In this document: one piece after another, positions 23,817 through 25,164 of the stretch
How positions within the stretch are numbered: the first letter of the stretch is position 1
How the letters are laid out: each line of letters begins with the position of its first letter
Source of the DNA: a virus
Strand: one strand, 5' to 3'
DNA: 64,000 nt
Virus record (IMG/VR): IMGVR_UViG_3300045988_119600
The notes under the pieces: generated by a model
Seen by the model: the letters and a program-made list of their open reading frames with translations, nothing else
The model's database searches: none
What the model was told of the DNA's origin: nothing
Translations under genes and position numbers: made by a program

Positions 23817-24043
23817 ATTTATATAAAATGAAGAAAGACCTTATCAGCAAATATAAGAATAAAATCTTTACCAAACTTCAAGGATGTTATTTGAGGTCTT
23901 GTAAATATTATCTAAAGCCCGCGAGAGAAAAAATAGACGGACTGAGCGTCAGTAATTCTGACTGGAACTTGAAGAGGAAGTTGTTGGCTGACATTAAAGC
24001 TGATATCTGCGGGCGTGGCGGAACTGGCAGACGCCTGGGACTT

Positions 24044-24781
24044 TTGACTTAGCAAACATTAAAATGGAGTGCCTAAGAGGAAACTCTTAGAGTAGAAGTT
24101 GGCTAAAACGGCGAATGGCTAAGAGAACGCCGTGCTAAGTTTTGGAACACATTCTAAAAAATTGGACGACACTCATTAAAATATCTCTTTCAATTTTTAA
24201 ATAATAATGAAAGAGAGGTAATATAAATGAGAACTGATATTTTAGAACGCAAAGAAGAAATTGAGCAATGGATTGCTGAAGGCAAGACTAAAGCTCAAAT
24301 GGCAAGAGAATTGGGTTGTAATCCTAAGACAATTAATCCAGTATTAAAAAAGCTTGGTCTTGAATATGCCGGAAATCGAGGTTGCAAAGGATTATCAAAA
24401 CCTAATGGACATGAATTATCTTTGTTAGAATACTTAGAAAAAAGTATTGATATACAAAGTAATAAAGTAAGAAAAAAACTTCTTGATGAAGGTTATAAAG
24501 AATATAAATGTGAATGTTGTGGGTTAACCGAATGGTTAGGAGAACCAATTCCTTTAGAACTTCATCATAAAGATGGAAATCATTTTCATAATGAATTAGA
24601 TAATTTCCAATTATTATGTCCAAATTGTCATGCAAAAACTTCTTCTTATCGTGGAAAAAATTGTTCCAAATAAATGTGTAGAGAGTATATACCAACTATC
24701 TAAGTGCAAGTCGTGCATATGATAAAGACGTATTCCAGACTACAACACAGAAATGTGGCTATGGTGACATAGAGTAGTAAG
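24044..24781 (+). mobile_element. Group I intron in the tRNA-Leu(UAA) anticodon loop, carrying an HNH homing endonuclease ORF
   Basis: Joined anticodon loop is cttaaaa. Exon ends in U and intron ends in G. The ORF sits inside the intron. Confidence 0.6.
24227..24673 (+). CDS. Intron-encoded HNH homing endonuclease (HTH N-terminus plus HNH)
   Basis: Motif ELHHKDGNHFHN...LLCPNCH; RBS aaagagaggtaatataaATG. Confidence 0.7.
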   Translation: MRTDILERKEEIEQWIAEGKTKAQMARELGCNPKTINPVLKKLGLEYAGNRGCKGLSKPNGHELSLLEYLEKSIDIQSNKVRKKLLDEGYKEYKCECCGLTEWLGEPIPLELHHKDGNHFHNELDNFQLLCPNCHAKTSSYRGKNCSK

Positions 24782-25164
24782 AAAATCCCATGAGGTAGAC
24801 CCTCGTACGAGTTCGAGTCTCGTCGCCCGCACCATTAAATAATAATAGCTAACGGCAGTTGCCTCTAATGAAAATTAGATAGACGGGTCGGGGTTGGCAT
24901 AGACAGGTCAACAGGTAGTGCAGCAGTAGGTAACAAATCTGCAAGTCGAAATAAGTTGGGAAAACCAAATGATACGGCTTAGTCCTTCGTAAGAAGTTGA
25001 AGAGAGATTTTAGGTAAAAGATAACAACTTTTAACTGCTCTTCGTAATTGACCATGAAACCGGGTCATAGCTACCATATTATTATTTAAGTCAATCTAAA
25101 AGGAGTGAGTCCAATGGGTTCTCGAATGGTTATCTTTTAACATCTTTTAAAGGAGGTTAAAAGA

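Follow-up and report, generated by a model that had tools for sequence, protein, structure and literature searches.

The window analysed here is a stretch of 64,000 nucleotides (nt) of viral DNA, the IMG/VR record IMGVR_UViG_3300045988_119600. Coordinates refer to the whole stretch, and related viral contigs carry L-numbers. At 24009-24834 there is a tRNA-Leu(UAA) gene, which we regard with high confidence as a phage gene split by a mobile group I intron that sits between U34 and A35. The intron contains an open reading frame (ORF) for a putative homing endonuclease with helix-turn-helix (HTH) and HNH regions. The main parts of the locus are the following:

24009-24043, + strand: tRNA-Leu(UAA) exon 1 (35 nt), tRNA nt 1-34, ending in U34; A24040-U24043 form the 5′ strand of P1
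24044-24781, + strand: group I intron, 738 nt, recognized from empty-site alleles, a covariation model, and RF00028 matches of ORF-less relatives
24227-24673, + strand: homing endonuclease gene for 148 amino acids (aa) with HTH and HNH parts; the final 8 coding bases make up the P6 3′ strand, and the stop codon overlaps J6/7
24782-24834, + strand: tRNA-Leu(UAA) exon 2 (53 nt), from A35 through the encoded CCA

When the two exons are joined, ARAGORN folds them into an 88-nt type II tRNA-Leu(UAA) with a long variable arm, a 7-bp acceptor stem, an encoded CCA, and the anticodon loop CUUAAAA. This loop is rebuilt by no other boundary pair than 24043/24782. The last base of exon 1 is U24043, and the last base of the intron is G24781. 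With introns allowed, ARAGORN recovered the split gene at exactly 24009-24834; in scans of the window it was missed both by default ARAGORN and by Rfam at gathering score. The position 34/35 is the classical site of tRNA-Leu group I introns (PMC13011429; 10.1101/2020.01.27.920355).

Searching viral contigs with the sequence of exon 1 brought up relatives both with and without the insert. In four contigs (L013, L015, L016, and L018) an identical exon 1 directly abuts exon 2, and the flanks are 96-99% identical. Because these intron-less relatives join the exons directly, the insertion is exactly 24044-24781, between U34 and A35. Contigs L014 and L017 have the same 738-nt insert at the tRNA-Leu site, and at this single position, behind an identical exon 1, the insert size is 0, 738, 764 (L011), or 896 nt (L009). 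Such presence/absence polymorphism at one precise site, in genes that are otherwise near-identical, is characteristic of mobile introns. The original prediction, made from the letters of the window alone, had proposed these same exons, a type II tRNA-Leu with the loop cttaaaa, a 738-nt insertion between U34 and A35 at the classic tRNA-Leu intron site, and the exon-end U and intron-end G. The fold of the joined sequence, the empty-site alleles, the two cited papers, and the bases themselves all agree with it. One further insertion was seen in L017 (5336-5581, - strand; 247 nt), which lies directly before the tRNA-Leu gene and corresponds to a place just upstream of window 24005-24011.

How much of a group I ribozyme can be recognized in this insert? 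With 24151-24660 (the loop L6) removed from the window copy, 37 different members of the family were aligned in MAFFT. A model of the helices P1-P9 was built by hand from the relatives and then counted on that alignment. Standard pairs are formed in 94.4% of 2234 cells, compared with 76.9% in shuffled columns and 31-42% when the 3′ partner is slid by 1-3 columns. Two-sided (compensatory) changes were found in 44 of the 65 pairs, and the covariation score was 0.422 vs. 0.148 (shuffled) and 0.07-0.09 (slid). In none of 500 shuffles was even one of five measures attained. The model yields these elements in the window copy:

24040-24044 with 24066-24070, + strand: P1, A24040-U24044 (ACUU of the exon plus U of the intron) with G24066-U24070; internal guide sequence GGAGU; U24043·G24067 at the 5′ splice site
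24073-24090, + strand: P2, CUAAGAG-GAAA-CUCUUAG, capped by a GAAA tetraloop; covariation in 7 of 7 pairs
24098-24102 with 24692-24696, + strand: P3, GUUGG with CCAAC; 5 of 5 pairs covary, 100% of cells pair
24107-24134, + strand: P4, ACGGCG 24108-24113 with CGCCGU 24128-24133, enclosing a 14-nt loop
24141-24148 with 24663-24670, + strand: P6, UUUGGAAC with GUUCCAAA; 8 of 8 pairs covary; L6 between the strands holds the endonuclease gene
24672-24688, + strand: J6/7 and P7 5′ strand, AAAUGUGUAGAGAGUAU (R element); G24681, bulged A24682, and G24683-U24688 pair with GUAUUCC 24730-24736
24697-24724, + strand: P8, outer stem UAUC/GAUA, receptor-type internal loop, inner stem GUGCA/UGCAU
24725-24736, + strand: J8/7 and P7 3′ strand, AAGAC + GUAUUCC (S element)
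24739-24778, + strand: P9 domain, a three-way junction of the closing stem ACUAC/GUAGU and the hairpins CACA-GAAA-UGUG and CUAUG-GUGA-CAUAG
24781, + strand: terminal G (omega-G); G precedes the 3′ exon in 37 of 37 aligned relatives

Nearly every pair covaries in P2, P3, P6, and the outer stem of P8. In the core helices, two-sided changes occur in all pairs of P3 (5/5) and P6 (8/8), in three of six pairs of P8, and in two of seven pairs of P7, while 92.6-100% of cells pair. At the first P4 pair, 24108/24133, A-U and U-A are swapped (16 vs. 21 sequences). ORF-less relatives have a short hairpin at the P6 position. P7 is formed in 99.6% of cells, with the variants GACUAU/AUAGUC, GAGCAU/GUGCUC, GAACAU/AUGUUC, and GAUCAU/AUGAUC. 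Its end (G-C, bulged A, G-C, A-U) is invariant, and its two inner pairs covary (C-G, G-C, G·U, A-U in one; U-A, C-G in the other). The pair G24683-C24735 beside the bulged A24682, invariant in 37 of 37 sequences, is expected from this position to be the guanosine-binding site. The outer stem of P8 varies as UACC/GGUA, CUCC/GGAG, CACC/GGUG, and AACC/GGUU; its internal loop is of the CCUAAG...UAUGG receptor type, with UCUAAG...UAUGA in the window copy. The P9 helices show compensatory changes, and 95-99% of their cells pair. The strings GUGUAGAGAGUAU and AAGACGUAUUCC correspond, in our reading, to R and S, two classical group I intron elements.

The pair at the 5′ splice site is U·G in 35 and C-G in two of the 37 sequences. 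Two family members in tRNA-Leu(CAA) genes (L133 7764-8054 and L021 4541-5403) have C before the 5′ splice site, giving C-G in P1. They resemble the 'Leu.3Cg' type, whose ability to splice has been questioned (10.1101/2020.01.27.920355).

Three other pairings were tried and rejected. P7 as GACUAC/GUAGU (24738-24778) was dropped, as covariation places P7 at 24681-24688/24730-24736 and makes the 3′ stem P9. A local hairpin GUGUA-GAGAG-UAUAC at 24676-24692 was dropped on the ground that its 3′ half covaries with the P7 3′ strand. The third candidate was a 3-bp outer extension of P3 (GUA/UAU), whose 3′ nucleotides form the base of P8, covarying with those that follow AUG.

The core helices P3-P4-P6 and P7-P3′-P8-P7′, with the P3/P7 pseudoknot topology, can thus be placed in the window copy, and they covary in the relatives. 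The original prediction had itself named an undetectable P3-P9 core as a finding that should count against a group I intron. What the comparison brings is support for that intron, from the P1-P9 covariation in 37 relatives and from the RF00028 matches of ORF-less relatives described below.

Several results nevertheless weigh against the assignment. The search with the Rfam group I model, RF00028, which had been proposed as the check, turned out negative: the window gave no match at gathering score, and 23900-25100 gave none even at E ≤ 10. No match was found in six related loci (L001-L004, L007, and L012) at E ≤ 1, nor in 16 further loci at gathering score. The best relative, L060, stays 0.1 bit under the RF00028 gathering score of 50 bits. 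P1 consists of 5 pairs only, and neither P10 nor P9.0 pairings were found. The canonical P5 is lacking, the local P5 hairpin being absent from the subtype to which the window copy belongs. Finally, the structure was derived from the same, mutually related sequences on which it was counted, and the percentage of paired cells is inflated by this; kinship and derivation have far less effect on how many distinct types of compensatory pair are counted.

The position of the missing P5 is occupied in another way. There, an ordinary short hairpin P5 is seen in some members of the family, L060, L121, and L048 among them. The window subtype has a pseudoknot with these two strands:

24048-24053, + strand: pseudoknot 5′ strand CUUAGC, in the P1 loop, pairing with GCUAAG 24118-24123
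24118-24123, + strand: pseudoknot 3′ strand GCUAAG, in the 14-nt loop closed by P4, at the usual position of P5

The helix between them shows two-sided changes in six of six pairs, and 95.8% of its cells are paired. In relatives the strands read CUUGGU/ACCAAG, CCCUGAU/AUCAGGG, or GUAUUC/GAAUAC, and the pairs CCAUUGAG/CUCAAUGG and AUAUGUUC/GAACAUAU are complementary as well. Judging from these changes, the intron's 5′ end appears to supply P5 in trans, and the pseudoknot would link the substrate helix P1 to the P4-P6 domain. We know of no such pseudoknot between the P1 loop and the P5 position among described group I introns. A covarying pairing of this kind is a natural redesign of the P4-P6 domain.

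The RF00028 matches came only from E-value searches of small regions. The 208-nt ORF-less insert of L060, searched alone, matched over the whole model (49.9 bits, E = 6e-12). In L100, which has a 225-nt ORF-less insert and belongs to the subtype of the window copy, the match was 26.7 bits (E = 5.8e-5), and its alignment deletes P5. In the ORF-less relatives RF00028 and the hand-built model give the same P3, P4, P6, and P8. The window copy probably escapes RF00028 owing to the 515 nt within L6 and the missing local P5.

Could the window copy be a decayed group I intron which no longer splices, so that this tRNA-Leu is a pseudogene and the endonuclease gene is kept as a selfish element? Although the copy goes undetected by RF00028, none of the core pairs in the family model is broken in it. 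The P8 receptor UCUAAG/UAUGA does depart from the family consensus CCUAAG/UAUGG, but the change is a compensatory one (U-A for C-G). The absence of P5 is likewise answered by a covarying replacement helix proper to the P5-less subtype, which implies selection on the RNA, and near-identical copies persist in the different phage contigs L005, L010, L014, and L017. We therefore consider decay very improbable and keep to an intact group I intron; by its core features the element is a group I intron of the classical tRNA-Leu(UAA) 34/35 type.

The endonuclease gene was the next component compared. The 148-aa HTH-HNH ORF read in the intron by the original prediction was found at 24227-24673, and the database matches confirm its character. 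The protein belongs with the HNH endonuclease families PHROG 10822 (E = 4e-27) and PHROG 14736 (E = 7e-26). In Pfam, residues 9-42 match HTH_38 (E = 1.7e-5, under the curated cut-off) and residues 95-138 match HNH (18.8 bits vs. a cut-off of 21.4). Over its full length it shows 53% identity to the T5 and BF23 phage protein HegA, annotated as the H-N-H endonuclease F-TflIV (tblastn, E = 8e-41). Homologues of 147-165 aa occur in seven other intron copies; that of L005 is 98% identical, and the other six are 62-71% identical. The motifs CxxC...HH.DGN...N...CPNCH are kept in eight aligned intron ORFs. The ratio of nonsynonymous to synonymous substitution rates (dN/dS) against the six intron-borne relatives of 62-71% identity is 0.13-0.34, which points to purifying selection. 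Because of these homologues, the dN/dS values, and the conserved motifs, the short 148-aa form can be taken as a maintained protein and not a fragment. In front of the gene lies one more element:

24184-24216, + strand: hairpin, UCUCUUUCA / UGAAAGAGA, 9 bp, covering the first part of the endonuclease Shine-Dalgarno sequence (AGAGAGG)

RNAfold gives -13.3 kcal/mol for 24170-24240, and the hairpin may have a regulatory role.

The site of the endonuclease gene differs among the introns. It is in L6 in the window, between P7 and P3′ in L009, and in the 5′ part (P1/P2 region) in L006, L035, L053, L055, and L074. As the gene sits in different loops, the ribozyme is what stays constant, and the gene positions imply that endonuclease genes have invaded this one ribozyme repeatedly and independently. 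This bears on a further explanation. Among characterised proteins the closest is T5 HegA/F-TflIV, which stands free between tRNA genes, and a similar free-standing HNH cassette might have destroyed the tRNA gene here, the conserved RNA on its flanks being unrelated. Against this, about 290 nt of non-coding sequence around the ORF are conserved, covary as P1-P9, and occur without an ORF in relatives; relatives match RF00028; and elsewhere the ORF is in other loops of the same RNA, so that the RNA is the constant part. We give this explanation almost no credence, and the insert remains for us an intron with an endonuclease gene in it.

How widely is the intron distributed? A pattern from the 3′ part of the insert matched 12 viral contigs, and AAATGTGTAGAGANNATA (18 positions, 16 specified bases) matched at least 120. 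Among the matches listed, the latter lies inside a split tRNA gene in 85 of 120 contigs. According to ARAGORN these split genes are mostly tRNA-Leu(UAA), with inserts of 205-1873 nt; many of its 'Phe GAA' and 'Stop' calls represent this Leu site with the boundary displaced. No ORF is present in the family's shortest inserts (205-260 nt). In the window itself, nhmmer profiles of both intron halves match only the copy at 24009-24834, and no second copy was found.

The transcription of the locus can be predicted as well:

23788-23816, + strand: sigma-70-type promoter, TTGACA-17-TATAAT, 12 of 12 consensus positions

This promoter, from its sequence and position, probably drives a transcript with the tRNA-Leu, the intron, and a RAGATH-33 RNA; such a transcript would consist of a 185-nt leader, the split tRNA-Leu, and RAGATH-33. 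Perfect 12/12 promoters of the form TTGACA-17-TATAAT are found at 23588-23616, 23788-23816, and 25483-25511 (all + strand), within 2 kb of the tRNA cluster. The RAGATH-33 RNA (RF03102; 24848-24976, + strand; 124.5 bits, E = 1e-25) starts 14 nt past the CCA of tRNA-Leu and is apparently in the same transcript. It is present downstream of intron-less alleles too, and at its position L004 has a weak Y-RNA-like (YrlA) match. Related tRNA clusters contain ROOL RNA (RF03087, 283-341 bits) at L003 7507-8092, L064 6054-6628, L091 5882-6477, L093 2879-3444, and L100 3240-3847; in L100 it directly adjoins the intron-containing tRNA-Leu.

The ORF 23828-24052, dismissed as a gene by the original prediction, is situated in the predicted leader, overlaps exon 1 by 35 nt and extends 9 nt into the intron. 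Profile searches (Pfam, PHROG) gave no family match for it, it has no Shine-Dalgarno sequence, and it starts about 3-10 nt past the predicted transcription start. Its single-nucleotide polymorphisms show no third-position bias, with only about 8 usable (2, 3, and 3 at codon positions 1, 2, and 3). The overlap and the missing family and ribosome-binding signals favour the dismissal, which falls short of proof with polymorphism data this thin: the ORF is probably not a gene, and a short leaderless peptide may be made from it.

Group I introns splice by two transesterifications initiated by guanosine, and the features above suggest how this might proceed here. A precursor would be transcribed from the consensus promoter 23788-23816, and its intron would fold into the P1-P9 core, where the exon end ACUU and the guide GGAGU would present the wobble U24043·G24067. 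Free guanosine bound at the P7 pair G24683-C24735 would attack the 5′ splice site. Then G24781 would occupy the same site, and the 3′-OH of exon 1 would attack the 3′ splice site, giving the 88-nt tRNA-Leu. In the window subtype the pseudoknot 24048-24053/24118-24123 would tie P1 to the P4-P6 domain instead of a P5 hairpin. Exon-to-exon pairing in the anticodon stem probably replaces P10, as in the Anabaena pre-tRNA-Leu intron, for which a title cited in one review indicates that such exon pairing is required (PMC3984707). The ribosome-binding site of the endonuclease would be partly buried in the hairpin. During mixed infection the enzyme would be expected to cut, or nick, a related phage's intron-less tRNA-Leu allele, and repair from the intron-bearing copy would spread the intron (homing). 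For splicing, for the activity and target of the endonuclease, and for homing alike, we infer this course from sequence comparison.

Removal of a group I-derived RNA could also depend on protein, through a maturase activity of the HNH protein or through RNA-repair enzymes of the phage. An RNA ligase gene is present in the window at 39658-41043, and three other tRNAs of the window have anticodon-loop inserts of 68-123 nt which cannot be such ribozymes. P1 is weak and P5 is absent, but the catalytic core is complete, with its G-binding pair and terminal G conserved, and the 205-260-nt ORF-less relatives keep this core with no encoded protein. To our knowledge, no maturase activity has been established for HNH endonucleases, which counts against such a role here. 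Protein-dependent removal seems to us very improbable, and we prefer a self-splicing group I intron.

The window as a whole has 33% G+C, many + strand tRNA genes, topoisomerase II subunits, a DNA methyltransferase, and an RNA ligase; it belongs to a large phage whose bacterial host has promoters of sigma-70 type. Its relatives are viral contigs in IMG/VR, 80-196 kb long. The RNA ligase (461 aa, 39658-41043, + strand) matches phrog_968 (E = 3e-65) and, just over the cut-off, the Pfam family RNA_ligase (PF09414), and it sits in a genome rich in interrupted tRNAs.

In four phage tRNAs another tRNA or tRNA-like unit lies within the anticodon loop (window 26052-26194, 2842-3004, and 3745-3943; L028 4972-5124). 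The nested inserts begin at nt 1 of an acceptor stem of 7 bp and end 3 nt (CCA, CUA, CCU, or CCC) past the discriminator base, and removal of exactly the nested unit leaves a 7-nt anticodon loop. In L028 the inner unit is a canonical tRNA-Phe; at window 2876-2959 it is a type II tRNA detected by Rfam, and at about 26085-26152 an acceptor/T-arm minihelix, in whose relatives the discriminator base alone varies. A nested arrangement was noted in a tRNA-Thr(TGT) of Lak phages and called enigmatic (PMC6784885). One idea is that the inner unit might be freed by RNase P together with a 3′ cut, with the nick then resealed by the RNA ligase of the phage. Deletion and rescanning of 596 predicted tRNAs gave one nested case (L028), no more than shifted controls. 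Nested tRNAs are rare and rest on individual cases.

Two + strand matches to tRNA models lack a default ARAGORN call: 1217-1291 (46 bits) and 2876-2959 (35 bits), the latter being the inner unit of a nested tRNA-Pro. A tRNA with the anticodon CUA at 4207-4296 (+ strand) is an amber suppressor with a long variable arm, called 'Pyl' by ARAGORN. Reading TAG as sense lengthens several window ORFs, and part of the genome may use TAG recoding.

The + strand carries three further genes of note:

28728-30293, + strand: 521-aa DUF2828/DUF7788 protein, PHROGs 'RNA-binding protein' (E = 5e-136)
30761-33259, + strand: 832-aa protein with major vault protein domains, MVP_shoulder (E = 4e-21) and Vault_3 (E = 6e-8), both over Pfam cut-offs
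47908-49293, + strand: SPFH/flotillin-like protein

The first two adjoin each other, and the third lies further along. A vault-like module in a phage would be unusual.

For annotation, the intron means that standard tRNA finders and Rfam with default settings miss such genes, so that phage tRNA repertoires are undercounted, while spurious ORFs such as 23828-24052 get called. For the biology of phages, inheritance in mixed infections is biased by homing endonucleases that lie in tRNA clusters, and the intron form would let the element sit within a conserved target at no cost to the phage.

How does the element compare with known systems? It shares with the classical tRNA-Leu(UAA) introns the host gene, the site 34/35 (between CUU and AAAA), U at position -1, the terminal G, and a small P1-P9 core. 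It differs from them in its phage genome, its homing endonuclease, the pseudoknot from L1 to the P5 position, and a poor RF00028 score. Some core strings are near-identical to those of the Azoarcus pre-tRNA-Ile intron (IC3), of which structures have been solved: J3/4-P4 AAUUCGGCGAAA, P4′ AACGCCGAGC.AAG, the R element GUGUAGAGACUA, and J8/7-P7′ GGUGAAG.CAUAGUCCAG. The Azoarcus intron also has a GAAA L2 and a CCUAAG...UAUGG receptor in P8. The strings likened to Azoarcus are present in family members such as L060. An IC3 periphery comprises a short P2 whose GNRA loop docks in a P8 receptor, a GNRA loop in P9, and a receptor in P5, without P5abc. The family shows a GAAA L2, the CCUAAG/UAUGG-type P8 receptor, and GNRA ends on the P9 hairpins, P5 being absent in the window subtype; IC3 is a candidate subgroup, as is IA, to which related Patescibacteria introns were assigned. 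The Azoarcus intron differs by its tRNA-Ile site 36/37, a normal P5 with a receptor for L9, and the lack of an ORF.

Among bacterial tRNA introns, 12 of 333 have endonuclease genes, including an HNH gene in one tRNA-Leu(UAA) from Bacteroidota, and HNH endonucleases are carried by some Patescibacteria tRNA introns (PMC13011429). The R-element string AAAUGUGUAGAGANNAUA of the window copy recurs exactly in bacterial tRNA introns, among them those in tRNA-Asn, tRNA-Asp, and tRNA-Thr of Patescibacteria; unlike the window copy, these Patescibacteria introns are inserted at 35/36 in other tRNAs. They are classed as IA (PMC13011429), and beyond the R-element string used for the scan they have little similarity to the window core. 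The closest relatives in the genome collection are tRNA-Leu and tRNA-Ser introns, which reach 70-82% against this core.

With HegA (F-TflIV) of T5 and BF23 the window protein has in common 53% aa identity over 148 residues, the HTH + HNH layout, and a phage tRNA cluster as location. However, T5 HegA has 227 aa and is free-standing between tRNA genes, whereas the window protein has 148 aa and is nested in L6. SegB of T4 is another free-standing endonuclease of a phage tRNA cluster. In T5, HegA belongs to the endonucleases encoded within the cluster of tRNA genes (PMC2330249).

The introns of T4 td, nrdB, and sunY and of phages SPO1 and Twort resemble the window element as self-splicing introns with an endonuclease, an ORF in a peripheral loop, and a ribosome-binding site in a hairpin, but they interrupt protein genes. 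Phage group I introns in protein genes are mostly of subgroup IA2. According to a 2014 review, all phage introns then known were in protein genes despite the many phage tRNA genes (PMC3984707). In 2019 short introns in Lak phage tRNAs were presented as the first reported in phage tRNAs and called enigmatic (PMC6784885). Our search of the literature found no published description of group I introns in phage tRNA genes. We put forward tentatively, with doubt slightly outweighing belief, that there exists a large, so far undescribed radiation of such introns, often with endonucleases and exchanged between phages by homing. It would occupy mostly tRNA-Leu(UAA) and, going by ARAGORN isotype calls, some other tRNAs, with at least three independent endonuclease insertions in different loops and one subtype in which P5 is replaced by a P1-loop pseudoknot. 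The type of element is well known; what stands out is its wider family in phage tRNA genes and the pseudoknot that takes the place of P5.

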